A stretch of DNA of 64,000 nt from Candidatus Latescibacterota bacterium (GCA_965204375.1 OZ241986.1:288001-352000); one strand, 5' to 3'. Counted from the stretch's first letter, positions 27,394 to 44,794 are shown. Numbers and translations: made by a program. The notes: generated from the letters alone by a model not told the origin.

Positions 27394-28986
27394 ATGCGTG
27401 TTTTTCTTTTTTTGCATTTCGTGTTGTTCCTATTTCTCAGTCCTGTATTTGCGGAAATAGATGTTGCTGTCGTATCTGAAAGCATCGTGCAGGTGCGTGT
27501 GTACAAGAATCATAAGATTTTGGCTGAGGGTAGCGGTTTTGTTGTCAATGAGGAGGGGTATGTGCTGACGAATGCCCATCTCCTAACAGATGCGGATGGA
27601 TTGACAGTCTTATCCCGAAAGACCGGTGCTGAAATCGTGTCACAGCAGATCTTTACCAATCGGGAATTGAATCTCGCTTTGTTGCGCGTGCAAGGTCTGG
27701 ATTTACCGCCTCTCAACTTGTCCGAACAAGGGGCCGATGTAGGCCGGGTCGTGGAAACCCTGAAGATAACTCCTCAGGATAGTATCCAGATTGCTCGTGG
27801 GACTATTGGCGCATACCAGGATGTGCCGGGAAAAAAAGTGAGTGATCCCGTGGCACATCTGCTACAGCACAATGCCATGGTGACTTCCAAAGCATTTGGT
27901 ATGCCTCTGTTTAATGAGTGCGGAGATGTTGTCGCTATTAATCTGCCAGACCCGAAGAGCGGATCCTGGCCGTTTCGGAAAAATGTGGAACCCAGAGGAA
28001 CAGTTTTTGCCTTGCGCAGCGGCGATATCATTACTGTGCTTAAAGACCGGAAGATTGCACATACAGTAGTTGAAGAAGAATGCTTGAGTGCTGTTGAACG
28101 CGCTCAACGAGATAGAAAAATCGCAGAAGATAGTATCAAAGCAGTAGCAGAAGCGGCAAGAGATAGTGTTAGTGCAGAAAGAGTTGCTCGGTTGGCGGCT
28201 GAAAAAGCTGTTAGGGAAAAGCAACAGGAGGCCGAAAAAGCAAAAGCTGCTCGGCTGGCTGCCGAACGGGCGAAGGCACAGGCGGATTCAGCAAGTAAGG
28301 CGGCGGCAGATAGTGTCAAAGTAGCACAAGACAGTATCAACACGGCACGGCTGGCATTAGAACGAGAAAAGGCAAGGACTGATTCGTTAAAGAAGGTGGC
28401 AGAGGAGCGTATTGCCGCTCAAAAAGCAGCAGATAGTCTCGCCGCAGTACATCAGCAGGATCGCGAAAAGACATCTCAAAGATTGCAATGGGCTATCGTA
28501 TCCGGGAGTGCGGTGGTCATTCTGGTACTCCTCGGCTGGTTCATGTTTGCACGCAGGAAGAGGGCGCAATTGCAAGCGACCGCTTCTCGTTTGAGTGAGG
28601 CAGAACAAGAGGCCGAAGTCGCGAGACAAGCCGCAGCACAAGCACCACAGCCCGCGCCTTTCAGATGTCTATTAGAAGGTCAAGACAACACGGGTCAACC
28701 CTTTGCGCTGAGTATATCAGCATTAGCCCTTGGTGCGCCTTCAGGTGCCACGCTTGGAAGAAGTCCTGCCAACGCAGAATTTATTATTGACCACGAATCC
28801 GTATCTCGCGAACACATCAAGCTTTTGTATGCCGACGGAAATCTCTATGTAGAGGACCTGGGTAGCACGAATGGTACCAAAATCAATGGACTTTTGCTCA
28901 ATCCGCGCGAACCCGTGGTGTTGCAGAACAATGATCAACTCGAGTTGGGGCCTGTTGTTTTTCAGGTGCGTTTGATGCAGGAGTGA
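27394..28986 (+). CDS. Inactive trypsin-like domain, coiled-coil stalk, TM and FHA
   Basis: GAGGAG RBS; GSGFVV, TNAH; Asp replaced by Asn (LNLA); SKAFGMP in place of GNSGGP; FHA LGR..VSREH..DLGSTNGT. Confidence 0.85.
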   Translation: MRVFLFLHFVLFLFLSPVFAEIDVAVVSESIVQVRVYKNHKILAEGSGFVVNEEGYVLTNAHLLTDADGLTVLSRKTGAEIVSQQIFTNRELNLALLRVQGLDLPPLNLSEQGADVGRVVETLKITPQDSIQIARGTIGAYQDVPGKKVSDPVAHLLQHNAMVTSKAFGMPLFNECGDVVAINLPDPKSGSWPFRKNVEPRGTVFALRSGDIITVLKDRKIAHTVVEEECLSAVERAQRDRKIAEDSIKAVAEAARDSVSAERVARLAAEKAVREKQQEAEKAKAARLAAERAKAQADSASKAAADSVKVAQDSINTARLALEREKARTDSLKKVAEERIAAQKAADSLAAVHQQDREKTSQRLQWAIVSGSAVVILVLLGWFMFARRKRAQLQATASRLSEAEQEAEVARQAAAQAPQPAPFRCLLEGQDNTGQPFALSISALALGAPSGATLGRSPANAEFIIDHESVSREHIKLLYADGNLYVEDLGSTNGTKINGLLLNPREPVVLQNNDQLELGPVVFQVRLMQE

Positions 28987-28989
28987 AAA

Positions 28990-30312
28990 TTGCAACCGAT
29001 ATGCAACTATTGGCGTGTTGTCGGTTTTATTCTCGCGTTTCTGTTTTTTTCGCGTGATGCTGTCGCTGCGCCAGATTTTGATGCGCTTGAGAAGAGTGTT
29101 GTGCGTATTGTAACGCAGACAAATCAGGGAATTGGGACGGGTACTGGATTTGTGATCAATGATCGGGGTTATATCGCGACGAACGTACACGTTATTGCCG
29201 GTGGCAATTTGATCAAAGCAATACCGACAAATTCCAATACCATGTACGATGTTGATGTGATTGCTATGTCCTATGAACTCGATCTGGCAATCGTACGCGC
29301 GCCGGGGATCAATCTTCCACCGATTACGCTTTCGCTCGCGCTGTCGAGAAAGGGGCAGAAGGTGTGGGCTATTGGTTATCCGGGGGGAGCCGATAGGAAC
29401 AGACCTGCCCATGATCCAACTGTACAGGATGGTGTTATTGGTAGAATTTTTTCAGGTGCATGGAAGACCCAAAAATTCAGGATTATTCAACACAACGCGC
29501 CTACGAATCCCGGTAACAGCGGCGGACCTTTACTGGACGACTGCGGAAGGGTGATTGGTGTTAATACGCAGGCGTCTCTCGTCGTGATTGCCAGCCCATC
29601 CGATGGGGTAACGCGGGTGCCGCACGCGGCGGGTATTTACTGGTCTTCTCATATTGAGGAATTGGCAAAGCTGTTACGTGAAAATGCAATTTCTTTTCAG
29701 TCAGAGGACGATGCGTGTTTGCCGGCTGATTCTACTGGGCGTTCTGCGGAAGTGGAAAGAGCGCGCCGGGAGGCAGAACGAGCCAAGAGCCAAGCAGACG
29801 ATGCGAGCCAGAAATTTCTTATTTGGGTGATATTATTGGGTGCTGTGGCTGTGGTCGCTCTGATACTTGCTTTGAAGAAACCCCGACAGCAGATCATTCA
29901 CGCTGCAGACCATATCAGCCGACGCTTCAAAACAAAAGCACCTGCCGAGGCTGTTCAAAAACGAGTATCCGAAAAACTGCCAGAACACGGTCTGATGCTG
30001 ACCGGGTTTGACGGTAATGGCAGTCCTGTCCGCATTGCGTTACCGCCAGCGAGATTCTCGGGGCAGCATTGGGGGGTTTCATTGGGCAGGCATCCCGAGT
30101 TGGTGGATGAAATTATCCAGGACCAAAATGTATCCAGACGACATGTGCGAATTGAGGCACAGGCAGGTCAATTTTATATCGAAGATTTGAACTCGCGCAA
30201 TGGAACGTTTTTGAATCACCATAAATTGTCTCCGTTTAAGCCAACGCTTTTAGACTATGGGGCTTTAGTGAGATTGGGTGGTTTGGAGTTCATGGTTTCA
30301 AAACTGGAATAG
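28990..30312 (+). CDS. Active trypsin-like serine protease, TM and FHA
   Basis: TNVH, LDLA, PGNSGGP triad; TM IWVILLGAVAVVALIL; FHA LGR..VSRRH..DLNSRNGT. Confidence 0.9.
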   Translation: MQPICNYWRVVGFILAFLFFSRDAVAAPDFDALEKSVVRIVTQTNQGIGTGTGFVINDRGYIATNVHVIAGGNLIKAIPTNSNTMYDVDVIAMSYELDLAIVRAPGINLPPITLSLALSRKGQKVWAIGYPGGADRNRPAHDPTVQDGVIGRIFSGAWKTQKFRIIQHNAPTNPGNSGGPLLDDCGRVIGVNTQASLVVIASPSDGVTRVPHAAGIYWSSHIEELAKLLRENAISFQSEDDACLPADSTGRSAEVERARREAERAKSQADDASQKFLIWVILLGAVAVVALILALKKPRQQIIHAADHISRRFKTKAPAEAVQKRVSEKLPEHGLMLTGFDGNGSPVRIALPPARFSGQHWGVSLGRHPELVDEIIQDQNVSRRHVRIEAQAGQFYIEDLNSRNGTFLNHHKLSPFKPTLLDYGALVRLGGLEFMVSKLE

Positions 30313-30325
30313 GAGCATCTTGTAG

Positions 30326-31186
30326 ATGAAAAAACGTAGCCGAGAAATTAATATTTTCAGTATGTCTGCGCTCGATCTATTCGCTTCGGCAATGGGCGCT
30401 TTCATTTTGATTACCATTGTGCTGTTTCCCTTTTTTCCGAACATGGGCGATTCATCGGAAAGCATAAAAAAAGAAAAAGCCGAACTGGTACAGGAAAAGG
30501 CTAAATTACAACAGGAAAAGGATAGGTTGGAACAAGAAAGAGCTAAACTCGAACAAGAAAAAGCCAAAGCCCCTAAAACGAAAAATAATCCACTTGAAGA
30601 ACGGGTTAAAGCACTGGAACAGGAGATTGATGACACATCTGTTTTATTGGGTATTAAGACCACAGCAAAGAAGTTTGTAATCGTAGTGGATATGTCTGGC
30701 AGTATTTATCAACCTGGTGGACAAGACTATCGCCAGTTCATCACATTGTCAGTACGGGATATGCTTTCTTCTTTTCAATCTGAAATAGAATTGGTTATGG
30801 TTGGTTTTCACGCCCCAAATCGCAGGACACGATTGCACTATTGGCCTGAAAACAGGCGTTATTTTCAAGTGATGAGGAGTACACGAGAGCAAGTCTTAGC
30901 CGCAATAGATAGGTGGATGAATCGCGTGGATGGTGGCACACCTACGCGCGAAGCCCTGCTGGCGGCCCTTGCCCTCAGTCCCGAAGAGATCATCCTGTTG
31001 AGCGATGGCGCACCCAACGAAGACTGGCGCAACGTTGTCAATGCCGTGACTCGTCGCAATATAAAGAGAACTCCCATACACGCCGTAGCAGTTGGCAACT
31101 ATGTAGCCCAACGAGATTTTGTCGAGTTTCTAATCGCGTTGACAAAGCGCAACGGCGGTGTTCTCGTGGGAGCTAAACCCGGTTGA
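30326..31186 (+). CDS. MotB/ExbD-like TM anchor, heptad stalk and vWA domain
   Basis: Basic N-terminus, TM SALDLFASAMGAFILI with Asp; MIDAS DMSGS...GGT...LSDG. Confidence 0.8.
   Translation: MKKRSREINIFSMSALDLFASAMGAFILITIVLFPFFPNMGDSSESIKKEKAELVQEKAKLQQEKDRLEQERAKLEQEKAKAPKTKNNPLEERVKALEQEIDDTSVLLGIKTTAKKFVIVVDMSGSIYQPGGQDYRQFITLSVRDMLSSFQSEIELVMVGFHAPNRRTRLHYWPENRRYFQVMRSTREQVLAAIDRWMNRVDGGTPTREALLAALALSPEEIILLSDGAPNEDWRNVVNAVTRRNIKRTPIHAVAVGNYVAQRDFVEFLIALTKRNGGVLVGAKPG
30473..30571 (+). repeat. About 4.5 tandem 21-bp units encoding EKAxLxQ heptads
   Basis: GAAAAAGCCGAACTGGTACAG / GAAAAGGCTAAATTACAACAG / GAAAAGGATAGGTTGGAACAA / GAAAGAGCTAAACTCGAACAA. Confidence 0.8.
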
Positions 31187-31198
31187 GAGGATTGCGAA

Positions 31199-31564
31199 AT
31201 GTCTAACTTTTCTACCTATCGAATTGGTCGCGGTTCGGATGTGGATATTCGCATTGACGATAGAACGGTCTCCCGCATTCACGCAGAGTTGGTTGTGACT
31301 GCGAAGGGGGCATACTATCTGACTGATTGCGGTAGTAGCGGTGGGAGTTATGTTGCGCGAAATGGCGAGTGGGAGGCTATTACGCAGGGTTTTATCTCTC
31401 CGATGGATGCAATTTTACTCGGTCGGTGTCAGACAACAGCGCAGCAACTTATGGCGATGGTTAATCAAGGTGGACGGGATATTGTAAGACGCAAGGATGA
31501 TTTGCCCGAGGGACCGGTGCGTCGCAATGTAGATACAGGTGAAATTATAGGAGACGAGGATTGA
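31199..31564 (+). CDS. Stand-alone FHA protein
   Basis: IGR...TVSRIHA...DCGSSGGS. Confidence 0.85.
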   Translation: MSNFSTYRIGRGSDVDIRIDDRTVSRIHAELVVTAKGAYYLTDCGSSGGSYVARNGEWEAITQGFISPMDAILLGRCQTTAQQLMAMVNQGGRDIVRRKDDLPEGPVRRNVDTGEIIGDED

Positions 31565-31565
31565 C

Positions 31566-32351
31566 ATGGCAATGGGTCAAGCAGCAGAGACGAATCAACG
31601 CCTCATCGCATCTGGTTTCAGTTTGGTAATAGGTGTTGTCCTTATTGGGCTACTGAGTATTGTCTTTGATAATCCCGATTCACAAGTGGGTGCTTTCTTG
31701 CTTGACCGCCACACGGAAAATTTCCTCTACCCGTTTACGATCCAGAATGTCATGTGGCTGATGTTTTGTCTGGGCTGTGGCGAGTTGTGGGGGCGATTTA
31801 ATCAGTCCAATTTAGAATTGGCACAAATCTCAAAGCGATATCTTCCAGAAGACGATTCAATTATGTTGCGGGCGCAGGACCTGGGTTCTCTCTATCAAAA
31901 GATGCGCCCAAAGGATGGGGAACGGACTTTCTTTTTGCAACGCTTAATCGCGCGCTGTATTTTGCAATTTCAGGGGAGCAGATCCGTCAATCAGACCAAT
32001 TCCCTACTAAATTCTTCTCTGGAATTATTTCAGCACGAGCTTGAACTCAAATATACCATGTTGCGGTATCTCGTCTGGCTGATTCCCACAATGGGGTTTA
32101 TTGGCACGGTTGTGGGGATCGCCTTTGCGCTGGATTACGCGGCGAGTATTGAAAATCCCCAGGATCCGACACTGCTGGCGGAGATCACTGGACGATTGGG
32201 CGTTGCGTTTTATACGACTTTACTCGCTCTGATTCAATCGGCACTGTTGGTCTTTGCACTGCATCTCGCGCAAGGTAGAGAAGAGATGGCCTTGAATCAA
32301 TCAGGCCAGTACTGTTTGGATAATTTAATTAACCGACTTTATGAAAAATAG
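31566..32351 (+). CDS. MotA/TolQ/ExbB proton-channel family protein
   Basis: IPTMGFIGTVVGI and GVAFYTTLLAL motifs; four TMs. Confidence 0.88.
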   Translation: MAMGQAAETNQRLIASGFSLVIGVVLIGLLSIVFDNPDSQVGAFLLDRHTENFLYPFTIQNVMWLMFCLGCGELWGRFNQSNLELAQISKRYLPEDDSIMLRAQDLGSLYQKMRPKDGERTFFLQRLIARCILQFQGSRSVNQTNSLLNSSLELFQHELELKYTMLRYLVWLIPTMGFIGTVVGIAFALDYAASIENPQDPTLLAEITGRLGVAFYTTLLALIQSALLVFALHLAQGREEMALNQSGQYCLDNLINRLYEK

Positions 32352-32363
32352 GAGGGTAGTGTT

Positions 32364-33014
32364 ATGCCTGTTTATCGCGGACCCGATGGCAAGATTATTG
32401 AAGAGAAAACGAATAAAGGGGAAGATGTGACCCAGCAGACTGATAGGGCACAAAGGCCGATGCCACCGGCACCACCGGGCGGCGGTCAAGGTGCTGGTGA
32501 TGGGCGTTTGGATGCACCTACTCAGAAGATGGATGCGAGTGGTTCTTCGTCTCCTGCAATCTCTGAAGAAAAGACCCGGGTTGTAGGAGGCCGTCGCAGG
32601 CAGGAAGATCAGCAGCGTCTGGAAGAACGCGTTGAGAAAGCCGATGGTATGGATGATCCGGTTGTGGGATGGTTGGTTATTGTCGAAGGACCTGGAAAAG
32701 GGCGGGCCATGCAATTGGGTTATGGTTCTAATTCGATTGGGCGTGGGGAAACTGATCGCATCAATCTCAATTTCGGTGATGATCAAATTTCGCGTGGCGG
32801 ACATGCCGTTGTGACCTACGATCCCCGTGGCAGGAAGTTTTACGTGCAGCACGGCGGAGGTACCAACCTGACCTACCTCAATGACCAACCCGTGCTCATT
32901 CCGATTGAACTACCCGTGCTGAGTCATATTAGCATCGGCAATACGGTTCTACGATTTGTGCCTTTGTGCGGCGATGCATTTGATTGGCAGGATATAGAAG
33001 AGAGTCAGGAATAG
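32364..33014 (+). CDS. FHA protein with disordered Thr-containing N-terminus
   Basis: PVVGWLVIVEGPGKG, IGR, ISRGGHA, FVPLCGDAFDW; GGAGG RBS. Confidence 0.88.
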   Translation: MPVYRGPDGKIIEEKTNKGEDVTQQTDRAQRPMPPAPPGGGQGAGDGRLDAPTQKMDASGSSSPAISEEKTRVVGGRRRQEDQQRLEERVEKADGMDDPVVGWLVIVEGPGKGRAMQLGYGSNSIGRGETDRINLNFGDDQISRGGHAVVTYDPRGRKFYVQHGGGTNLTYLNDQPVLIPIELPVLSHISIGNTVLRFVPLCGDAFDWQDIEESQE

Positions 33015-33188
33015 CGATTGTCATTGCGGTTCCTGGTACCCGTATAGAGTTACTACGGGATTTGGTTGAGTCGCCACGCATGCTTAAGGCAGGGCATAGA
33101 CATTACGACGTCAATAATCCAGTGGTTTTGGTTATCATTTTTTTTACGGACCAGCCAGTCATAAAAATACATTGTCAGGAGAAATGCT

Positions 33189-34715
33189 ATGAACGAAGCA
33201 CAACATCCCCTCAACGCTCTGCCCCAGGGCCACCGGCTCTATGAATACGAACTGGTACGCGTGCTGGGCTTTGGGGGATTTGGCATGACCTATCTCGGCT
33301 TTGACCACAACCTGGACAAAGCCGTTGCGATCAAGGAATATCTCCCATCCGATATTGCCACTCGTACAGGCGATAATAGCGTTGCTCCGCAAGCCAGCCA
33401 GTTTCGCGATGATTTTGAGTGGGGATTGGATCGTTTCTTGGATGAAGCGCGTGCCTTAGCCCGGTTCGATCATCGCCACATTATTAAGGTGCATCGTTTC
33501 TTTGAAGCACATGGTACGGCGTATATTGTGATGGAATATGCTGAAGGCGAGACTTTATCGGCGTTTTTGGAACGCAAAGGGACGTTGAAAGAATCTGAAC
33601 TCAAAGCCATTCTGTATCCGCTTCTCGATGGTCTGGAGGTGGTGCATCGGGCTGATTTTTTGCATCGGGATATCAAGCCTGGCAATATCATCATTCGGGA
33701 TGAGGATAATTCGCCAGTGTTGTTGGACTTTGGTTCAGCACGTCAGGCGATGGGAGCGAAGAGCCGTTCAGTTACGTCGATCATCACGCCGGGATATGCG
33801 CCAATAGAGCAGTATTCGAGTCGGGGAGATCAAGGTCCCTGGACGGACATTTATGCGTTGGGGGGAGCGTGCTACCGCGCATTGACGGATGAGGTTCCGG
33901 ATGATGCGACAGATCGTATGCGAGATGATCCCTTGATTCCAGTATCTGAGCGGTGCGCGGATCAAGCGAGTGCTGGATTTCTTTCGGCTATAGATTGGGC
34001 GTTGACAGTGGATGAAAGGGATCGTCCGCAAAGTATTGCAGAATGGCGTGCTGAGTTGAAGGAGGATTTAGCGGAAGCACCGGGGACAGAGAACATCCAG
34101 CCGCCAGTTACGGCATCTGCAACCGCACCCATAGAAGGTGGCTCTGACGACGCGCAGGCCCGATACACAGCAGTCCAGAGCAATTCCCAACCAGCACAGA
34201 TAAAGGTCCGCGCTGACGACGTGAGTCGCTTGAACAAGTGGTTTCTATGGTTTTGGATCGGCCTTTTAGCCGGCATTCCGCTCTCGGTAATCATACTCGG
34301 CTTCATAGCCATTATCGTTAGCCTCGTATGCGGTTGCTGTATCTTGCACAAACTGTGGTGCCTCATCCCTGCTCACGAAGCAAAAACAACACCGGGCAAA
34401 GCTATTGGGTTTCTTTTTATCCCATATTTTAACTTATACTGGAACTTCATCGCCATTTATGGTCTCGCCCAGGCCCTCAATAGTCAGATCAGGCAACGCG
34501 GAATAAAGAACAAAGGGGTTGGTGAAGGACTTAGTTTGATCTACTGTATCCTCGCCATAAGTGGCTTCCCCATACTTTTGCTGTCCGGTGCGTCTGAGTT
34601 CGGGATCGGGCTTACCATAATCATTATAATTACTGATTTTGTGTTCGGCATAATCATTCTCAAGCAAATGAAGAACACTGGTATCGCATTGATTGAAAAT
34701 CGTGCGGTAGAATAA
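33189..34715 (+). CDS. Ser/Thr kinase 1 with multi-TM C-terminal module (DUF4328-like)
   Basis: LGFGGFG, VAIKE, HRDIKPGN, DFG, TPGYAPIEQ; TTPGKAIGFLFIPYFNLYW. Confidence 0.92.
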   Translation: MNEAQHPLNALPQGHRLYEYELVRVLGFGGFGMTYLGFDHNLDKAVAIKEYLPSDIATRTGDNSVAPQASQFRDDFEWGLDRFLDEARALARFDHRHIIKVHRFFEAHGTAYIVMEYAEGETLSAFLERKGTLKESELKAILYPLLDGLEVVHRADFLHRDIKPGNIIIRDEDNSPVLLDFGSARQAMGAKSRSVTSIITPGYAPIEQYSSRGDQGPWTDIYALGGACYRALTDEVPDDATDRMRDDPLIPVSERCADQASAGFLSAIDWALTVDERDRPQSIAEWRAELKEDLAEAPGTENIQPPVTASATAPIEGGSDDAQARYTAVQSNSQPAQIKVRADDVSRLNKWFLWFWIGLLAGIPLSVIILGFIAIIVSLVCGCCILHKLWCLIPAHEAKTTPGKAIGFLFIPYFNLYWNFIAIYGLAQALNSQIRQRGIKNKGVGEGLSLIYCILAISGFPILLLSGASEFGIGLTIIIIITDFVFGIIILKQMKNTGIALIENRAVE

Positions 34716-34748
34716 GCTGATTCTTGCGATAATCGCGGGATGCTATGA
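34711..34748 (+). repeat. Kinase leader/junction repeat, copy 1 (others at 35140-35172 and 39598-39647)
   Basis: AATAAGCTGATTCTTG..ATAATCG...ATGCTATGA recurs three times. Confidence 0.75.
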
Positions 34749-34895
34749 TCGGAGAACAATGATGGCAAGACGATGCGGATGAGACGTTGTTTGAATCGCT
34801 ACATCCGAAAGTTATACTGAGTCTTGATGTAAAAATCCATGACACGACATCCCCCTAAAAAGCTGGCAACATAAATAGAATCAGGAGAGCGCGTT

Positions 34896-35145
34896 ATGAA
34901 GCCAGGTGAAATAATTTTTGAAGGTCGAAGGCGGCTACAACGTCAGGGCTTTAGGCTACGGGATTTTTGCCCAGAGGGAAGATTGGGCCGACTTGAGGGC
35001 AATGGTAAAGGACGCGGCACTTTGACACTTTGATGAGGACGATATACCCAAAGTAATTGTCGCTGAGCATTTTGGACTAACTCCAGATGAAGTTCATCGT
35101 ACTGACAAGCTCAACGTTACGGTGTCCGATTCTAAAAAGAGCTGA
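34896..35145 (+). pseudogene. Decayed HicB-like antitoxin, possibly joined to a HicA-like C-terminal remnant
   Basis: AGGAG RBS; MKPGEIIFE, frameshift, EGGYNVRALGYGIFAQREDWADLRAMVKDAAL*HFDEDDIPKVIVAEHFGLTPDEV. Confidence 0.65.
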
Positions 35146-35168
35146 TTTCTGAAATAATCGGAAATGCT

Positions 35169-36488
35169 ATGAACAACGCACAACAACCTCTTAACGCTCT
35201 GCCCCAAGGCCACCGGCTCCAGGAATACGAACTGGTACGCGTGCTGGGCTTTGGGGGATTTGGCATGACCTATCTCGGCTTTGACCACAACCTGAACAAA
35301 GCCGTTGCGATCAAGGAGTACCTACCATCCGATATTGCCACCCGTACAGGCGATAACAGCGTCGCTCCACAGGCCAGCCAGTTTCAAAGTGATTTTGAGT
35401 GGGGGCTGGATCGTTTTTTAGATGAGGCACGCGCCTTAGCCCGGTTCGATCATCGCCACATTATTAAAGTGTATCGTTTCTTTGAGGCACATGGTACGGC
35501 GTATATCGTGATGGAATATGCTGAGGGTGAGACCTTGTCGGCGTTTCTTGAACGCAAAGGGACATTGAAGGAAGCTGAACTCAAAGTTATTTTGTATCCG
35601 CTTCTCGATGGTCTGGAGGTAGTGCATGGGGCAGATTTTTTGCATCGGGATATAAAGCCGGGCAATATCATCATTCGAGATGAGGACAATTCGCCCGTGT
35701 TGTTGGACTTTGGTTCAGCACGTCAGGCAATCGGTGCAAGGAGCCGTTCAATTACGTCAATCATCACGCCGGGTTATGCGCCAATAGAGCAGTATTCGAG
35801 TCGGGGAGATCAAGGCCCTTGGACGGATATCTATGCGTTGGGAGGCGTATGTTATCGCGCATTGACTGGTCAAGTGCCGGATGATGCGACAGATCGTATG
35901 CGGAATGATCCTTTGATTTCGGTGTCTGAGTGCTGTGCGGGTCAAGCGAGCGATGATTTTCTATCGGCGATAGATTGGGCTTTGGCAGTGGATGAAGAGG
36001 ATCGCCCACAAAGTATTACAGAATGGCGTGCTAAGTTGGGGGATGATTTGACAAAACAGGAGCCTGTGCCAGTATCGCAACAAAGGCGTCACCAGGACGA
36101 AAAGACCGTTGATGAGTTACCAAATCATCCGTCTGTAGAGGATGTACAAAAAATGTTATTGTCAGCAGGGTTAGCTGATGCAGCCAGGCAATTAGGGGTA
36201 TCTGCTAGAGAACTGGATTTTATAAGAAAAAAATATGGCCTTCAGTTGCCCAAACTCGTAGCGCAAAAAAAGACAGAAGGAGGAAATATTATGGCGGGAC
36301 AAGGTTCGGGCGGCAATGTTCTTGCTGCTTTGTGTAGCTTTTTTATTCCGGGTTTGGGCCAGTTGCTTCAGGGGCGTTTGCTCATTGCCCTTTTTCAATT
36401 TTTTTTGGCGGCCATCCTGTGGTTTATCTGGATGGGCTGGTTGATCCACCTGTGGTCTGTTCTGAACGCCGCTCGGTGGAGACCATGA
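35169..36488 (+). CDS. Ser/Thr kinase 2 with Fis-like HTH and fused small membrane protein
   Basis: Full Hanks motifs; AARQLGVS..IRKKYGL; C-terminal NVLAALCSFFIPGLGQLLQGR. Confidence 0.9.
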   Translation: MNNAQQPLNALPQGHRLQEYELVRVLGFGGFGMTYLGFDHNLNKAVAIKEYLPSDIATRTGDNSVAPQASQFQSDFEWGLDRFLDEARALARFDHRHIIKVYRFFEAHGTAYIVMEYAEGETLSAFLERKGTLKEAELKVILYPLLDGLEVVHGADFLHRDIKPGNIIIRDEDNSPVLLDFGSARQAIGARSRSITSIITPGYAPIEQYSSRGDQGPWTDIYALGGVCYRALTGQVPDDATDRMRNDPLISVSECCAGQASDDFLSAIDWALAVDEEDRPQSITEWRAKLGDDLTKQEPVPVSQQRRHQDEKTVDELPNHPSVEDVQKMLLSAGLADAARQLGVSARELDFIRKKYGLQLPKLVAQKKTEGGNIMAGQGSGGNVLAALCSFFIPGLGQLLQGRLLIALFQFFLAAILWFIWMGWLIHLWSVLNAARWRP

Positions 36489-36545
36489 TTGCAGGCGTTA
36501 ATACCGACAATCGCGCTCAGATAGAGCACACACAAGAGGAAGTAT

Positions 36546-37736
36546 ATGGATTTGTTAGATGGACGATTTGCCGCGCAGCAAATTCCTGGTGGGCGGGAAT
36601 ATCAGGAGGACGATTACGGCCTGATTGAGCCGGGTGATCCCGATGCTGACGGGAGTGAGGTGTTGTTGATAGCGGATGGGATGGGTGGACATGTCAGCGG
36701 CGATACGGCGAGCAGGACGGTGGTTAAGACCTTTGTGGAGACCTATCACAGCACGGATGGGCCGGTGCCGGATCGTCTGCGTGCCTGTCTCAACGCGGCC
36801 AATGATGCCCTCGCCGAAGCAATAAAAGAAAACCCGGAACTGGAGGGTATGGGATCCACTGTGGTTGCAGCAGTTGTTTCACAACACGGACTCGACTGGA
36901 TCAGTGTAGGCGATTCTCCCTTGTGGTTGTTCCGCGATGGCAAGTTGCGTCGCCTCAATGCCGATCATTCTATGGCGCCTGTGCTTGCGAATCTGGTAGC
37001 AGTTGGGCGCATGACTGAGGAAGAAGCGGCGACGGATCCCAAACGTCATGCCCTGCGCTCGGCGGTTATGGGCGATGAAATTCACCTGATTGATGTCTCA
37101 TCGCAACCTGTTGCGATTCGGAAAAGTGATCGCGTGTTATTGGCGAGTGATGGTTTAATGACACTTGAGGATGAGGAGATTGCAGGTGTTTTACAGAACA
37201 TGAAGGATGCATCCCTATCAGAAGTCGCCGAGGCACTCATCCAGGTGGTGGAAGAGGTCGGGTATCCAAATCAAGATAATACGACCGTGTTGCTCTATAC
37301 TCCGGTGGCGGATTGTGGGATGGAAACTGTTCTGGATGAGACTACACAGAAGCAATTTGACCAGTCTGAGCGACCAAGAAGAAAGAAGGGTTTGTTTTGG
37401 ATATTGTTATGCGGGGCCTTGATCGCTCTTGGACTACTCGCTTATTGGTTCATGTCGCGCACGCCTGACAAAGAGGCAGTGGTTGAAACCACACCGGTAC
37501 AGCAAGCAGAGCCACCTAAACAGGATGTTTCTCCACCCGCTACGAGAACTTCTGATTTGCCAGAGGTGCAACCCGGGAGCAAATTTCCACAGACAGAACG
37601 ACCCGCAAAGGATGCGCCAGCACAACTCGACACAGGCAAAGTGAATGGGGAATCACTAAAGAAAAAAACTGAAGGTGTCTCAGCGAAGCCATCAACACCA
37701 CCCGATACTACATCCCAATCGAAAGGAATGAGGTGA
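36546..37736 (+). CDS. Membrane-anchored PP2C/PPM phosphatase
   Basis: REYQED, ADGMGGH, VGDSP, ASDGL, QDNTT; TM; Pro/Thr-rich tail. Confidence 0.93.
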   Translation: MDLLDGRFAAQQIPGGREYQEDDYGLIEPGDPDADGSEVLLIADGMGGHVSGDTASRTVVKTFVETYHSTDGPVPDRLRACLNAANDALAEAIKENPELEGMGSTVVAAVVSQHGLDWISVGDSPLWLFRDGKLRRLNADHSMAPVLANLVAVGRMTEEEAATDPKRHALRSAVMGDEIHLIDVSSQPVAIRKSDRVLLASDGLMTLEDEEIAGVLQNMKDASLSEVAEALIQVVEEVGYPNQDNTTVLLYTPVADCGMETVLDETTQKQFDQSERPRRKKGLFWILLCGALIALGLLAYWFMSRTPDKEAVVETTPVQQAEPPKQDVSPPATRTSDLPEVQPGSKFPQTERPAKDAPAQLDTGKVNGESLKKKTEGVSAKPSTPPDTTSQSKGMR

Positions 37737-39571
37737 ACGACGCACACCACCGATTGGCACTGCCACAAGGTACTCGCATACAGGACTTTGAATTTCACCG
37801 CGTCTTAGGGCAAGGCGGTTTTGGCATCACCTATCTCGGCTGGAATATGGCACTGGATATTCCTGTGGCGATTAAAGAGTATTTGCCCTCGGACCTTGCG
37901 ACCCGTGAATACGACCTATCGGTGGTGCCGCAGTCATCTCAAGCCGCGTCGGATTTTGAGTGGGGACTGGATCGCTTTATAGATGAAGCGAGAATATTGG
38001 CGCGTTTCCACCATCCAAATATTGTTCGTGTGCATCATTTCTTTCAAGCGCACAGCACGGCGTATATCGTGATGGAATATGCCGAAGGTGAGACCTTGTC
38101 GGCATTTCTCGAACGCAAGGGGACACTGACTGAAACCGAACTCAAAGCCATTCTGTATCCGATTCTCGATGGATTGGAGGTGGTGCATCGGGCTGATTTT
38201 TTGCATCGTGACATCAAGCCGGGGAATATCATCATCCGGGATGGGGACGATTCGCCAGTGTTGTTGGACTTTGGTTCAGCGCGTCAGGCGATCAGTGCAA
38301 GGAGCCGTTCCGTTACGTCGATCATTACGCCGGGTTATGCGCCTATAGAACAGTATTCAAGTCGGGGTGATCAGGGTCCTTGGACGGACATCTATGCGTT
38401 GGGTGGTGTGTGTTATCGTGCATTGACTGGTGAAGTGCCGTATGATGCTACGGATCGTATGCGGAATGATCCACTCATTCCAGTAGTTGAGCGATGTGCA
38501 GACCAAACGAGCGCTGGGTTTCTATCGGCGATAGATTGGGCATTGGCTGTGGATGAGGGTGATCGACCGCAAAGTGTGGGAGCCTGGCGTGTTGCGCTGA
38601 AAAAAGAGACACCGGGCAACATGGATGTAGATACATCAGCTACAACATCTGTAACCGCTCCTCCATCAAAAGTACAGGATCGAAAAAGAGATGATGCCCC
38701 ACCTGTGCATCATCCCACCAAGTCCAAAGGAAAGTTATTTGTTTCGTTTGCCTGCGTGGTTGCTCTGTGGGCTTGTGCTATCTATTATTATCACTATGAA
38801 TATCTCCCCGATCAGCGTCACTGGGAGGAACAGGGAGTAGGCAGGAAATTCAGAGACTGTGCGAAATGTCCGCAGATGGTGGTGGTGTCATCGGAATCAT
38901 TTACGATGGGGTCTCTTAGTGGAGAGGAAGGCAGTAAAAATGATGAGAGTCCCCAGCATGTTGTGCGTATAGATTACAGGTTTGCCGTGGGTATGTATGA
39001 AGTAACCTTTGCTGAGTGGGATGCGTGCGTGTCAGATGGTGGTTGCGGAAGGTATGTTCCTGATGATGAGGGTTGGGGGCGTGGGAATCGTCCGGTAATA
39101 AATGTGAGTTGGGAGGATGCACAGTCTTATGTGCGCTGGTTGTCTGCAAGGACGGGGTATAATTATGGCTTACTGAGTGAGTCAGAATGGGAGTATGTAG
39201 CGCGAGCGGGGACGACGACGGCTTATAGCTGGGGGGATAATATAGGTCGGAGCCGCGCTAATTGTGACGGTTGTGGCAGTCAGTGGGATGGTGAGAAGAC
39301 AGCCTCAACAGGCTCATTTAGTGCCAACACTTGGGGCGTTTACGATATGCACGGGAATGTGTGGGAGTGGGTGGAGGACTGTTGGAACGACAGTTATATA
39401 GACGCACCTTCTGATGGGGCTGCGTGGGAAAGTGGCGATTGTTCTGAGCGCGTGTTGCGTGGCGGTTGCTGGTTCGACAAACCGAGTCTCCTCCGCTCGG
39501 CGGACCGCAGCAGGCTTACCACCGGACGCCGGGGCAGCTTCATCGGTTTTCGAGTTGCCCGGCGTTTTTAA
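37733..39571 (+). CDS. Ser/Thr kinase 3 with TM and FGE-sulfatase (C-type lectin fold) domain
   Basis: Hanks motifs; PVINVSWEDA, SESEWEY, DMHGNVWEW, RVLRGG..IGFRVAR; GTGA overlap with PP2C. Confidence 0.93.
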   Translation: MNDAHHRLALPQGTRIQDFEFHRVLGQGGFGITYLGWNMALDIPVAIKEYLPSDLATREYDLSVVPQSSQAASDFEWGLDRFIDEARILARFHHPNIVRVHHFFQAHSTAYIVMEYAEGETLSAFLERKGTLTETELKAILYPILDGLEVVHRADFLHRDIKPGNIIIRDGDDSPVLLDFGSARQAISARSRSVTSIITPGYAPIEQYSSRGDQGPWTDIYALGGVCYRALTGEVPYDATDRMRNDPLIPVVERCADQTSAGFLSAIDWALAVDEGDRPQSVGAWRVALKKETPGNMDVDTSATTSVTAPPSKVQDRKRDDAPPVHHPTKSKGKLFVSFACVVALWACAIYYYHYEYLPDQRHWEEQGVGRKFRDCAKCPQMVVVSSESFTMGSLSGEEGSKNDESPQHVVRIDYRFAVGMYEVTFAEWDACVSDGGCGRYVPDDEGWGRGNRPVINVSWEDAQSYVRWLSARTGYNYGLLSESEWEYVARAGTTTAYSWGDNIGRSRANCDGCGSQWDGEKTASTGSFSANTWGVYDMHGNVWEWVEDCWNDSYIDAPSDGAAWESGDCSERVLRGGCWFDKPSLLRSADRSRLTTGRRGSFIGFRVARRF

Positions 39572-39643
39572 CTCTTCCAAATGGTGCCCAATTTTAAAAT
39601 AAGCTGATTCTTGAAATAATCGGAAATGCGGAATAATAATGCT

Positions 39644-40840
39644 ATGAACAGTGCCCAACAACCCCTTAATGCTCTACCACAAGGCCACCGGCTCCAGGAA
39701 TATGAACTGGTACGCGTACTCGGATTTGGCGGATTCGGCATGACCTATCTCGGCTTTGACCACAATTTGGACAAAGCCGTGGCCATCAAAGAATACCTGC
39801 CATCTGATATTGCCACCCGTACAGGTGATAACAGCATTGTCCCGCAAGCGAGCCAGTTTCAAGATGATTTTGAGTGGGGATTGGATCGTTTTTTAGATGA
39901 GGCACGCGCCTTAGCCCGGTTCGATCATCGCAACATTATTAAAGTGCATCGTTTCTTTGAGGCACATGGTACGGCGTATATCGTGATGGAATATGCTGAG
40001 GGTGAGACCTTGTCTGCGTATCTTGAACGCAAATGGACATTGAAAGAGGCTGAACTCAAAGTTATTTTGTCTCCAATTCTCGATGGCCTGGAGGTAGTGC
40101 ATGGGGCAGATTTCCTGCATCGAGATATAAAGCCGGGCAATATCATCATTCGAGATGAAGACAATTCGCCAGTGTTGTTGGACTTTGGTTCAGCACGTCA
40201 GGCAATCGGTGCAAGGAGCCGTTCGGTTACGTCGATCATCACGCCGGGTTATGCACCGATAGAACAGTATTCGAGTCGAGGAGATCAAGGACCCTGGACA
40301 GACATCTATGCGTTGGGTGGTGTGTGCTATCGTGCATTGACTGGTGAAGTTCCGGATGATGCGACAGATCGGATGCGTGATGATCCCTTGATTCCGGTGT
40401 CTGAACGATGTGCAGACCAAGCGAGTGTAGGGTTTCTATCGGCGATAGATTGGACATTGGCTGTGGATGAGGCAGACCGTCCGCAGAGTATTGCAGCGTG
40501 GCGTGCAAAGTTGGAAGGTGAGTCGACAGAGCACGAGTTTGTGCCAGTATCGCAGCAAGGGCGTTACCAGAGCGAAAAGACCATTGATGATTTGCCAAAT
40601 CACCCGCCCCTAGAGGATGTGCAAGAAATGCTGTTGTCAGTAGGGTTAATTGATGCAGCCAGGCAATTAGGGGTATCCGTTGGAAAACTAGATTTAATAA
40701 GAAAAAGATATGGCCTTCAGTTGCCCAAACTCAACTATAAAGACGAGAGAAGTCAGAAATCTAAGGCTGTGGAGGTTCTTATGCTGATATTATTAGCGAT
40801 AATAGCGATTATAATTGGATTCGCATTGAGGTTTAAGTAA
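39644..40840 (+). CDS. Ser/Thr kinase 4 with Fis-like HTH and C-terminal tail anchor
   Basis: Hanks motifs; same HTH as kinase 2; single terminal TM. Confidence 0.9.
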   Translation: MNSAQQPLNALPQGHRLQEYELVRVLGFGGFGMTYLGFDHNLDKAVAIKEYLPSDIATRTGDNSIVPQASQFQDDFEWGLDRFLDEARALARFDHRNIIKVHRFFEAHGTAYIVMEYAEGETLSAYLERKWTLKEAELKVILSPILDGLEVVHGADFLHRDIKPGNIIIRDEDNSPVLLDFGSARQAIGARSRSVTSIITPGYAPIEQYSSRGDQGPWTDIYALGGVCYRALTGEVPDDATDRMRDDPLIPVSERCADQASVGFLSAIDWTLAVDEADRPQSIAAWRAKLEGESTEHEFVPVSQQGRYQSEKTIDDLPNHPPLEDVQEMLLSVGLIDAARQLGVSVGKLDLIRKRYGLQLPKLNYKDERSQKSKAVEVLMLILLAIIAIIIGFALRFK

Positions 40841-42756: not shown

Positions 42757-43104
42757 CTAAAATAAAAATTCGGGATGTCTTTTTTTGAGACGTAATGTGT
42801 GCTCGGCGACATCGAGATCGTAGTGGGTTTGAAGATTAATCCAGAACTCAGACGTCATGCCAAAGTAGTGACCAAGGCGTAGCGCGATATCGATAGTTAT
42901 TCCATGCCTTCCATGCATGATAGCTTTCAGGTCAGTCTCCGAAACCTTAATCGCTTGGGCAAGGCGGTCCACACTGAGATTTATCGGAATAAGAAATTCA
43001 TCGCGCAGGATTTCACCGGGATGTACAGGCGATAGCCGGTGTCCGGAGACCACATCCGAGAAATCGATCTCTCGTTGATCTAATTTTTCACGTTTGATGG
43101 TCAT
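42757..43104 (-). CDS. higA: HigA-family antitoxin (orphan)
   Basis: VHPGEILRDEFL...ALRLGHYFG...FWINLQ; GAGGAGG RBS. Confidence 0.9.
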   Translation of the reverse strand: MTIKREKLDQREIDFSDVVSGHRLSPVHPGEILRDEFLIPINLSVDRLAQAIKVSETDLKAIMHGRHGITIDIALRLGHYFGMTSEFWINLQTHYDLDVAEHTLRLKKRHPEFLF

Positions 43105-43216
43105 GCTTTTACCTCCTCAATGGCAGTCAACGTCAATAATTTAGCTTGTCAATTTGTTTGATGATCGTATTTTTTCAAACATACGGGTATCGCCTTGCTT
43201 TCAAGGAGACACAGCT

Positions 43217-44794
43217 ATGCGTTTTTTTAATACCGCTGGCCCTGTTAAGCCAGAAAGGCACTACTGCATCCCGCCCCTAAAACGCTTGAACTTGAATGAG
43301 GTGCTCGCGCTCGTGCGGGAAGAAAAATACTTCGTCCTGCACGCGCCCCGGCAGACAGGCAAGACCTCTGCCCTGCTGGCACTGCGCGACCTGCTCAACG
43401 CCGAAGGCGACTATCGCTGTGTGTACGTCAACGTCGAAGGCGGGCAGGCCATGCGCGAAGACGTGGAACTGGTGACGCGCACCATTCTGGCGGGATTGGC
43501 GTCCCGGGCGCGCTTGACGCTCGGTGACGAATTTTTGGGCAAGATGTGGCCCGGTCTCCTTGCCGAGGTTGGACCGGGTGTTGCTCTACAGGAGGCATTG
43601 ATCCGCTGGGCACAGGCGGATCCCAAGCCCCTGGTGCTGCTCATTGACGAGATTGATTCCCTGATTGGCGACGCGCTCCTATCTGTGTTGCGTCAATTGC
43701 GAGCGGGCTACGATCTGCGCCCGGAGGGATTTCCGCAAAGTGTGGTGCTATGCGGTGTGCGCGATGTGCGCGACTATCGCATTCATTCCAGTTCGGCCAA
43801 TGCCATCATCGCCGGTGGCAGTGCTTTTAACATCAAAGCGCGGTCATTGCGCCTGGGGGACTTTTCGCGTGACGAGGTGATTGCCCTGCTCGGTCAGCAC
43901 ACCGAAGAGACGGGACAGGTGTTCATTCCCGACGCGCGAGAACTGATCTGGACACAGACTCAAGGACAACCCTGGCTGGTCAACGCACTGGCGTACGAAA
44001 CCTGTTTCTATGGCGAAGCCGCAGAGGATCGGGGTATCTCGATCACTGCCGACGCCATCCGCAATGCACAAGAGCAACTCATCCTGCGCCGAGAGACGCA
44101 CCTCGACCAGTTGACCGACAAGCTCCAGGAGAAGCGCGTGCAGCGCGTGATTGAACCGCTCTTGAGCGGTGGCGACGAGCGCGACTTCTCAACCCGCGAC
44201 CTTGAATACGTCCACGACCTGGGTTTGATCGCCCCAAATGACCCACTCCGCATTGCCAATCCAATCTACGCGGAAATCGTCCCGCGTGAATTAACCTACG
44301 CAGCCCAGGTGGGACTTGATGAGGATACGGCTTGGTACGTCAATGCCGATGGCAGCCTGAATGTGGTCAAACTGATGACCGAGTTCCAGACTTTCTTCCG
44401 CGAGCACTCAGAGCACTGGGTAGCGCGGTTTCAATATCAGGAGGCTGGTCCACAACTACTCTTGCAAGCATTTCTCCAGCGCATCGTGAACAGCGGTGGT
44501 CGCATTGAGCGGGAGTATGGCCTTGGACGTAGGCGCACCGACCTGCTGATCGTGTGGCCGCAGGGTGATCGGACGCGCAAAATTGTAATTGAGTGCAAAA
44601 TTCTCCACAAGAGCCTGGAAAAGACCATCGCCGATGGTCTGGCGCAGACCGCGGAGTACATGGATCGGTGCGATGCAGAGGCGGGTCATCTGGTGATTTT
44701 TGACCGTAGAGAAGGCAGGCGTTGGGCAGACAAAATTTTCCACTGCCGCCGGGCGTCTCAAAGTGATGTCGAGATTGATATCTGGGGCATGTAA
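43217..44794 (+). CDS. AAA/STAND-like ATPase fused to a PD-(D/E)XK nuclease-like domain
   Basis: MRFFNTAGP, APRQTGKT, LLIDEID; REY..GRRRTDL...IECK. Confidence 0.88.
   Translation: MRFFNTAGPVKPERHYCIPPLKRLNLNEVLALVREEKYFVLHAPRQTGKTSALLALRDLLNAEGDYRCVYVNVEGGQAMREDVELVTRTILAGLASRARLTLGDEFLGKMWPGLLAEVGPGVALQEALIRWAQADPKPLVLLIDEIDSLIGDALLSVLRQLRAGYDLRPEGFPQSVVLCGVRDVRDYRIHSSSANAIIAGGSAFNIKARSLRLGDFSRDEVIALLGQHTEETGQVFIPDARELIWTQTQGQPWLVNALAYETCFYGEAAEDRGISITADAIRNAQEQLILRRETHLDQLTDKLQEKRVQRVIEPLLSGGDERDFSTRDLEYVHDLGLIAPNDPLRIANPIYAEIVPRELTYAAQVGLDEDTAWYVNADGSLNVVKLMTEFQTFFREHSEHWVARFQYQEAGPQLLLQAFLQRIVNSGGRIEREYGLGRRRTDLLIVWPQGDRTRKIVIECKILHKSLEKTIADGLAQTAEYMDRCDAEAGHLVIFDRREGRRWADKIFHCRRASQSDVEIDIWGM

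Follow-up and report, generated by a model that had tools for sequence, protein, structure and literature searches.

A Gene Cluster of Candidatus Latescibacterota That Appears to Join a Putative Ion Motor and a Protease Pair to Phosphothreonine Signalling and Diversified Receptor Kinases

An Eleven-Gene Cluster with a Conserved Core and Variable Kinase Tails

In the genome of Candidatus Latescibacterota bacterium we analysed a stretch of 64,000 nucleotides (GCA_965204375.1, OZ241986.1:288001-352000), referred to here as the window, to whose full length the coordinates of the cluster refer. Its positions 27394 to 40840 hold 11 open reading frames (ORFs), all on the + strand, which encode two membrane-tethered trypsin-like proteins, a MotA/TolQ/ExbB-family channel subunit and a partner with a vWA domain, two further FHA proteins, four Hanks-type kinases, and a PP2C phosphatase (Table 1). 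With a probability of roughly 45%, we read this cluster as a phosphorylation-switched machine for the surveillance or defence of the cell envelope. The cluster itself is real, as its synteny is conserved in other genomes, which excludes a chance grouping. A neighbourhood search from MotA, proposed in an earlier sequence-only reading of the same DNA, returned a conserved core with a variable kinase tail in several phyla (GTDB and metagenome loci, 78 tails). Moreover, in some relatives the variable tips are linked to diversity-generating retroelements (DGRs), which strengthens the surveillance idea.

The co-orientation of the 11 genes, their spacing, and their domains, as described in that reading, were borne out by ORF calls and Pfam. 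The gaps among the first six genes (g1 to g6) are 3, 13, 12, 1, and 12 bp, and those from g6 onward are 174, 453, 57, -4, and 54 bp. Pfam found Trypsin_2 together with FHA in two proteins, FHA in two others, VWA, MotA_ExbB, and PP2C in one each, and Pkinase in four, with an additional FGE-sulfatase domain in kinase 3. The core genes are single-copy in the 6.34 Mb genome and are covered by contigs from RNA libraries, which are not proof of transcription. Scans of the cluster for promoters and terminators gave signals at chance level.

The Putative Motor Pair

Known 5:2 ion motors drive flagella, Ton/Tol transport, gliding and type IX secretion (T9SS), and Zorya defence. The g5 protein scored 40.3 bits against the MotA_ExbB profile of Pfam (cut-off 22.9), and ends shortly past its last helix. 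Its predicted structure, with a predicted local distance difference test score (pLDDT) of 96, matched best TolQ (9kpz; Z 13.8, root-mean-square deviation (rmsd) 3.7, 207 residues aligned) and ExbB (6ye4; Z 13.2, rmsd 3.6, 205 aligned), with ZorA (Z 10.5) and MotA (Z 9.3) below both, Z values of this size being only moderate for helical proteins. A Foldseek search with the model gave no match at E<=0.001, but TolQ and ExbB were nevertheless its top rows. Three residues of the Thr ring, T181, T217, and T218, are kept in at least 90% of 99 rows.

The vWA domain of g3 is a weak Pfam match (25.7 bits, cut-off 23.8), and its model (pLDDT 91.5) has a best structural match with Z 19.1, rmsd 2.3, and 157 residues aligned. 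The metal-ion-dependent adhesion site (MIDAS) is complete (D122-x-S124-x-S126, T205, D227), and a DxSxS or DxTxS motif is present in 91 of 120 g3 homologues, in which the stalk varies from 30 to 144 aa. The Asp of the trans-pore helix (TPH; D17 in g3) is kept in 136 of 137 homologous helices; the sole Asp-less one, with Ala-Leu-Met-Ala, belongs to a 594 aa protein of a second Chelatococcus locus (L205:7793-9574, - strand, G041). The vWA head changes more quickly among relatives than its helix does. In the relatives from runs X4 and X9, 42 bases of the g3 coiled coil (window:30481-30524), corresponding to 14 residues or two heptads, are missing.

The coupling Asp, the Thr ring, and the TolQ/ExbB fold together lead us to read g5 and g3 as an ion-motor pair. 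The vWA gene most likely encodes the motor's own ExbD/MotB-type subunit, paired with g5. From fold and residues, a 5:2 assembly and ion-driven rotation would be expected. A complex prediction with three g5 copies and g4 scored 0.28 against a mark of 0.32, with controls that were not folded. The same reading had noted the absence of TonB, which holds for the cluster but not for the genome, where TonB and ExbD genes lie beside other ExbB-family genes; the three ExbD matches adjoin two such genes, and none is syntenic with g5.

In Zorya, ZorA has a long cytoplasmic tail, ZorB has a peptidoglycan-binding domain, and ZorC/D/E are the effectors. The cluster shares with ZorAB the MotA-family fold, the 5:2 logic, and a possible defence role, and differs from it in its apparent kinase control; one can imagine an abortive response in which kinase activation uncouples the channel and the membrane potential collapses. 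Such a response would fit ZorA as a structural neighbour of g5, the weak matches to ZorA/ZorB profiles (E 3e-4 to 5e-3, PADLOC), and the HipA-like pair that adjoins the cluster and matches the PADLOC candidate PDC-M03. However, TolQ and ExbB outscore ZorA, the coupling Asp and the Thr ring are intact, the ZorA tail is missing, a vWA domain replaces the peptidoglycan-binding one, and ZorC/D/E had no match among the 13 proteins scanned, a genome-wide search for them not having been made. Membrane collapse of this kind is, in our estimate, highly unlikely.

A Predicted Phosphothreonine Circuit

All four Pfam FHA matches of the genome lie inside the cluster, which points to a self-contained phosphothreonine (pThr) circuit and agrees with the FHA-based switch put forward earlier. 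In the FHA domains of the cluster, the pThr pocket retains its Arg, Ser, and His; the FHA domain of g4 has no Asn of the NGT motif. The Gly-loop, VAIK, HRD, DFG, and APE motifs are intact in all four kinases, as are the metal-binding Asp motifs of the phosphatase.

The linker of g6 is poorly conserved apart from [DE]-x1-2-T-x-x-hydrophobic motifs, of which 69 were counted in 37 non-redundant linkers, compared with 11.3 +/- 3.6 in shuffled linkers (0 of 500 shuffles reached 69). A control motif with Ser showed no enrichment in the linkers. As T-x-hydrophobic was enriched too (71 vs. 40), the enrichment is not confined to one exact spacing. FHA domains prefer a hydrophobic residue at pT+3. From these motifs, g6 is likely a kinase substrate and scaffold. 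In 105 of 142 loci, the gene of the small FHA protein g4 immediately precedes MotA, and R109, T113, and G114 of its RRNxxTGEI motif are kept in at least 90% of 66 rows, although the motif may have a purely structural role; the names of g4 homologues were uninformative. In ten metagenome loci (L076, L079, L080, L084, L085, L090, L091, L093, L094, L135), a g6-type FHA gene lies on the opposite strand, between a vWA pair and g4.

The Protease Pair

The dead and live proteases noticed in the sequence-only reading were recognised again by their catalytic residues: in g1 the His is kept (H62) and the Asp and Ser are replaced by N93 and F168, and in g2 the triad is intact (H67/D98/S177), with GNSGGP in 29 of 29 rows. 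The two protease domains are homologous (hhalign 99.9%) and HtrA/MarP-like, the g1 profile matching MarP/DegP/DegS structures with E~1e-16. The nucleophile motif is missing in 60 of 60 g1-type relatives and present in 43 of 43 g2-type ones, a split that is partly circular, since g1 and g2 were themselves the seeds of the profiles used for labelling.

This HtrA/MarP likeness, together with the strong conservation of the core, would suit a housekeeping role in envelope quality control, namely a stress relay of the DegS/HtrA kind, with damaged proteins of the periplasm being unfolded by the motor and passed to the protease. The related threonine phosphorylation pathway of type VI secretion (T6SS) senses membrane damage, according to the accessible text of PMC13713981. 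Against such a role, the cluster is patchy, being present in only 10 of 20 congeners searched, many of which are >95% complete, and exchanged, DGR-mutated tips are unexpected for a fixed self signal. We regard quality control as distinctly unlikely.

Kinase Array and Exchanged Tails

At the DNA level, the kinase domains of the window share 79-89% identity; kinases 2 and 4 form a tandem duplicate (86.6% nt identity over 1150 bp, including upstream DNA), and the number of kinase-family copies per genome ranges from 1 to 9. The 453 bp between kinases 1 and 2 (window:34716-35168) hold short interrupted frames only, and match elsewhere in the genome only through a shared kinase upstream motif. We scanned 78 tails, namely the four of the window and 74 of 80 from other loci after six near-duplicates had been dropped. 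FGE and ankyrin families were each assigned to 24 of them, DUF4328 to two, TerB-DnaJ, SNase, TonB_C, and Excalibur to one each, and no family to the remaining 24; the exchanged types include FGE/C-type lectin (CLec), ankyrin, and PDZ. Relatives with MotA at 90-98% identity have few or none of the tails of the window in common with it. The sensor kinases are therefore variable in their tails, as had been claimed, but kinase 3 alone among the four in the window carries a recognisable periplasmic ligand-binding domain. The tail of kinase 1 matched unnamed clusters only in the ESM Atlas.

The CxxxxC pattern, which we take to be the catalytic pattern of FGE, was found in 0 of 39 kinase-type FGE tips. 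A transmembrane (TM) segment is present in 35 of 40 kinase-FGE proteins, which places the FGE tip outside the cytoplasm. Run X3 has the core on a single identical contig of depth 48, and two tail contigs of depths 13.5 and 16.6; this gap is a weak hint of tail heterogeneity, depth being no measure of copy number. Fusions were also seen, of a live trypsin with a kinase and ankyrins (L022:15671-18760), of vWA with FHA (L120:7018-9582), and of FHA with kinase-FGE (L106:11432-14641, a possible frameshift artefact). Taken together, these comparisons, and the retroelements described below, indicate that duplication, the exchange of tails and, in some relatives, a DGR have diversified the predicted ectodomains.

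Non-catalytic FGE folds raise the possibility of a motor for host interaction, adhesion, or export, which would drive a periplasmic track or cargo as GldLM/PorLM does with the PorK ring, its kinases tuning it to host cues. FGE proteins are found with MotA of both clades (at 20 of 23 loci of the far clade and at 10 of 13 metagenome loci of the near clade), the MIDAS vWA resembles adhesins, ankyrin tails are common, and some relatives come from sponge- and coral-labelled runs (4 of 23 runs were covered for run-derived relatives). In the accessible text of PMC12421860, a 5:2 motor with an arm in the periplasm is linked to PorK, whose FGE fold is non-catalytic, features shared with the cluster. 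However, PorM there contacts PorN and not the FGE domain; the present motor belongs by sequence to another family, no PorN/Sov equivalent was seen, and the FGE domain of the window is part of a kinase anchored in the inner membrane. Moreover, the operon lacks an outer-membrane or translocon gene, and other relatives occur in sediment-labelled contigs and on a Rhizobium plasmid. We hold a host-interaction motor to be unlikely.

Retroelement-Targeted Tips in Relatives

Among 79 FGE gene ends tested for template repeats (TRs), five loci had TRs with matching variable regions (VRs) and adenine-specific mismatches, namely L036 (17 of 21 mismatches), L049 (16 of 19 and 19 of 20), L065 (12 of 13), L139 (14 of 14), and L068, in which one TR matches six tips (17/17 to 19/19). 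Avd scored above the NCBIfam cut-off in L049, L068, and L139 and was found by tblastn in L065; a full reverse transcriptase (RT) gene adjoins in these four loci, and remnants were seen in L036 and L058. The motor gene is intact in L049, L065, and L036, where the DGR-targeted kinases have a TM segment; the target in L139 is truncated by the contig end, hence a kinase fusion is not visible. In L215 and L216 (G015, G804), a DGR RT, fragment or whole, stands beside stand-alone FGE genes, and cluster genes were not seen there.

In the genome of the window no TR, Avd, or DGR RT was found; two RVT_1 matches were rejected as DGR RTs, being frames of 585-635 aa with weak or no match to DGR RT. The tip of kinase 3 nevertheless differs from the TR of L068 at 20 of 35 adenines and at 8 of 83 other bases (Fisher p 1.3e-7), so that a frozen VR is plausible on this comparison. 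An unlinked FGE paralogue in the same genome has a similar adenine bias.

Distribution and Synteny

The nearest relatives of the MotA protein, up to 98% identical, are in Candidatus Latescibacterota records. In a quick MotA tree of 89 rows, a near clade of 66 rows was separated from a far clade of 23 with a Shimodaira-Hasegawa-like approximate likelihood ratio test (SH-aLRT) value of 100. An alignment search at E<=1e-25 found MotA matches in 36 of 140 genomes of the own phylum, 32 of 300 of the class of the gammaproteobacterial host (including G082, flagged unpublished), 17 of 301 of the class of Chelatococcus, and 5 of 151 of the phylum of the Bryobacterales host. Gammaproteobacterial MotA sequences group with those of Latescibacterota at 75-78% identity, and Rhodothermota with Acidobacteriota; this mixing of phyla within clades suggests horizontal transfer, and the cluster looks mobile.

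Synteny was counted at loci flanked by at least 5 kb of sequence on each side (46 of 54 GTDB near-clade, 13 of 80 metagenome, 6 of 36 evenly sampled near-clade, and 23 of 36 far-clade loci). The 46 GTDB loci had vWA in 43, FHA in 44, kinase in 42, PP2C in 40, trypsin in 37 (dead in 36, live in 25), and FGE in 18, numbers that overstate conservation, as this set is dominated by kin and its counts are non-independent. The 13 metagenome loci had vWA in 13, FHA in 12, kinase in 11, PP2C in 4, trypsin in 11, and FGE in 10, and the six evenly sampled ones vWA in 6, FHA and kinase in 4 each, and PP2C and trypsin in 3 each. PP2C and the live protease are optional in relatives. The 23 far-clade loci, with the gene order TPR, PEGA-FGE, MotA, and vWA pair, had vWA and FGE in 20 each, kinase in 1, and trypsin in none.

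This far clade, with kinases in only one of its loci, is what would be expected if two separable modules travelled together, one being an orphan motor and the other a signalling set of kinases, FHA proteins, and proteases with other targets; so are lone kinases in MotA-negative genomes, and locus L068, which has no motor and keeps the rest. On the other side, the cluster genes are interleaved in many arrangements across loci with a spacing of 1-13 bp, g4 stands beside MotA in most loci, and the kinase family is present in 10 of 10 MotA-positive congeners vs. 1 of 10 MotA-negative ones. We judge the separation into two modules very improbable.

A gene of ~450 aa with a C-terminal, often degenerate FHA domain stands near MotA in far-clade loci L185:5820-7205 (-), L187:10427-11791 (+), L184, L188, L193, and L196; its N-terminal part resembles by eye an Hsp70/actin-type ATPase, and its candidacy as a diverged dead trypsin was rejected (hhalign probability <1%). 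A plasmid of Anabaena cylindrica carries a distant MotA homologue (L223:9779-11179) immediately downstream of a type III-B CRISPR operon, with a viperin gene nearby.

Comparison with Known Systems

The vWA proteins of the TerY-P triad and of archaeal ArnA/ArnB are soluble and cytoplasmic. The cluster shares with these systems a vWA domain together with phosphatase, kinase, and/or FHA, but here the vWA protein is a predicted periplasmic, membrane-inserted motor subunit. General scans gave no TerY-named match for g3; a dedicated TerY profile was not used.

The sequence-only reading had presented the system as a candidate undescribed one, which does not hold for the motor pairing: TolQ-like proteins with TPH-vWA partners were already predicted as putative 5:2 motors, with no assigned function, by Williams-Jones et al. 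2025 (PMC12204202). Its main text, as far as accessible, mentions neither kinase nor protease, and its single FHA string is FhaC. Shared with those motors are an orphan TolQ-like gene with no adjacent exbD/tolR/motB, a TM-tethered vWA with Asp, and the Thr ring. The accessible text describes predominantly heterologous vWA pairs, whereas there is one TPH gene here, as in 40 of 46 GTDB loci; by sequence, the single TPH gene is a variant of the TPH-vWA motors. Pairs of vWA genes are present in other near-clade loci, and the far clade may be closer to the published set.

In the T6SS sensor pathway, as far as the text of PMC13713981 is accessible, FGE-dependent dimerisation of PpkA is proposed to precede Fha1 phosphorylation, with TagR as an FGE-fold activator. 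The cluster shares with PpkA/PppA/Fha1/TagR an inner-membrane Hanks kinase, an opposing inner-membrane phosphatase, an FHA substrate, and a periplasmic FGE fold. In contrast to that pathway, here FGE is fused to the kinase and variable, and the apparent output is an ion motor with proteases. In line with the sequence-only reading, no T6SS core gene was found, neither TssC nor Hcp turning up in the 96% complete, single-contig genome; TssC was found in 2 of 5 distant hosts of the cluster.

DGR-diversified CLec sensors and kinases are known (PMC10907252, PMC7517822), as are VMAP ternary systems (PMC7159879). According to the accessible parts of these sources, they share with the cluster kinase-CLec DGR targets near vWA/trypsin-like genes, proposed as antigen sensors, but use MoxR or STAND nucleoside triphosphatases (NTPases) and are mostly cytosolic, whereas the partner in the present system is a putative ion motor, and the tips are mostly periplasmic. 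The same parts make no mention of MotA (PMC10907252, PMC7159879) or of FHA (PMC10907252, PMC7517822). MoxR and VMAP were not found in the locus, an AAA-family gene lying past an opposite-strand gene pair, and none of the 11 cluster genes encodes an ATPase.

The combination of motor, FHA/PP2C, protease and pseudo-protease, and DGR kinases was not found in the full-text literature, coverage of which excluded most subscription papers, bioRxiv supplements, and Fig. 4c of PMC12204202. The motor core had been predicted in print, and DGR-diversified kinase-CLec proteins are already known; the DGR signatures on FGE tips of related loci are new, and so, as far as this literature reaches, is the joining of motor, phospho-control, and protease pair.

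Proposed Mechanism and Its Weighing

From their folds and residues, g5 would form a TolQ/ExbB-type pentamer into which two g3 helices are inserted as an Asp-bearing axle, and proton flow would rotate a coiled-coil arm ending in a periplasmic MIDAS vWA grip. The Hanks kinases, with exchangeable ectodomains, would be dimerised and thereby activated by ligand binding, as is proposed for the TagR-PpkA-Fha1 pathway, and would phosphorylate the Thr motifs seen in g6. The resulting pThr would be read by the cytoplasmic FHA ends of g1 and g2 and by g4, gathering the proteases at the motor and switching it on. Most speculatively, the vWA domain might grip a recognised phage, competitor, or host protein, on which the motor would pull while the dead protease holds and the live one cuts it, and PP2C would reset the switch. 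A fuller version, in which DGR-hypermutated receptor kinases form an immune repertoire for the periplasm and signal through pThr and FHA to a proton motor whose vWA seizes foreign proteins for the protease/pseudo-protease pair, is possible but on balance doubtful.

Several findings weigh against the surveillance or defence machine, in addition to the kinship within the GTDB set. The operon holds neither a recognisable killing effector nor an outer-membrane component, PADLOC gave only generic kinase/protease and weak ZorA/B matches for the 13 proteins scanned, and the literature search found no experiments on any cluster member. Pfam matches nothing in the membrane segments that close kinases 1, 2, and 4, and these three kinases have no recognisable sensing domain. 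The kinase family occurs in six relatives with no MotA match, and some near-clade motors (L066/L067, L203, L205) have no kinase or FHA within ~10 kb. Locus L068 (G017) has lost the vWA gene and most of MotA while keeping kinases, DGR, FHA genes, proteases, and PP2C, and four of its five kinase-FGE proteins have no TM segment, possibly reflecting conversion to cytoplasmic sensors. DGR RTs are rare, being present in 5 of 140 genomes of the phylum, three of them within the cluster, and DGR targets also include non-defence signalling proteins, according to the accessible text of PMC7517822. Finally, the live protease is not obligatory: the 74 loci in which a trypsin domain was seen comprise 32 with the dead form only, 28 with both, and 14 with the live form only. 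The many loci with the dead form only suggest that binding may be more important than cutting.

Coordinates and Neighbouring Genes

Table 1. Features of the cluster, in coordinates of the window.
Feature	Position	Strand	Basis
g1: catalytically dead trypsin/HtrA-like domain after a signal peptide, then a long helical stalk, TM, and FHA; 530 aa	27394..28986	+	Pfam, hydropathy
g2: signal peptide, trypsin-like protease active by residues, short stalk, TM, FHA; 440 aa	28990..30312	+	Pfam, triad
g3: ExbD/MotB-like TPH with Asp17, coiled coil, vWA with full MIDAS; likely axle subunit; 286 aa	30326..31186	+	motifs, model
g4: small FHA adaptor, C-terminal RRNxxTGEI; 121 aa	31199..31564	+	Pfam, alignment
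g5: MotA/TolQ/ExbB-family channel subunit with Thr ring T175/T181, T217/T218; 261 aa	31566..32351	+	Pfam, model
g6: disordered N-terminal linker with Thr motifs (T53, T71), C-terminal FHA; likely kinase substrate/scaffold; 216 aa	32364..33014	+	motif statistics
Kinase 1: Hanks kinase, tail of 3-4 TM (DUF4328-like in relatives); 508 aa	33189..34715	+	Pfam, hydropathy
Kinase 2: Hanks kinase, short hydrophobic C-terminal tail; 439 aa	35169..36488	+	Pfam, hydropathy
PP2C phosphatase, TM, variable low-complexity periplasmic tail; 396 aa	36546..37736	+	Pfam, metal-binding Asp motifs intact
Kinase 3: Hanks kinase, TM, non-catalytic FGE-sulfatase (CLec) domain; 612 aa	37733..39571	+	Pfam
Kinase 3 tip, with homology to DGR VRs in relatives; candidate frozen VR	39444..39561	+	comparison with L068 TR
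Kinase 4: Hanks kinase, one C-terminal TM, no extracytoplasmic domain; 404 aa	39626..40840	+	Pfam, hydropathy

Directly downstream of the cluster (window:41135-42583, - strand) lies the split HipA-like pair, a HipA_C protein of 343 aa and a Couple_hipA protein of 135 aa, which match the PADLOC candidate defence profiles PDC-M03A/B. It is followed by a helix-turn-helix gene (42757-43104), presumably HigA-like, and the AAA-family gene (43154-44794). Upstream, window:14973-21993 encodes a 1641 aa protein with Peptidase_M28 and FtsX domains and then a multi-pass membrane protein of 685 aa, for which Pfam gave nothing at 1e-7.

Significance

To the class of TPH-vWA motors, the cluster adds a phosphorylation switch, tethered proteases, and strongly diversified receptors. 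Such strong diversification of receptors is a clue to function, as it suggests that the system recognises something changeable. The variant on the Rhizobium leguminosarum plasmid pRlBT01d (NZ_CP125637.1, near 163.4 kb) provides a cultured host for direct tests. If the surveillance or defence machine is real, it would link DGR hypermutation to a mechanical response of the envelope, and, should the immune-repertoire version also be true, it would represent a 5:2 motor that Ser/Thr kinases control and a trans-envelope defence that is adaptively diversified and does not belong to the NTPase-based systems. It may then be informative on the sensing of phages, rivals, or hosts by marine bacteria that are associated with animals.

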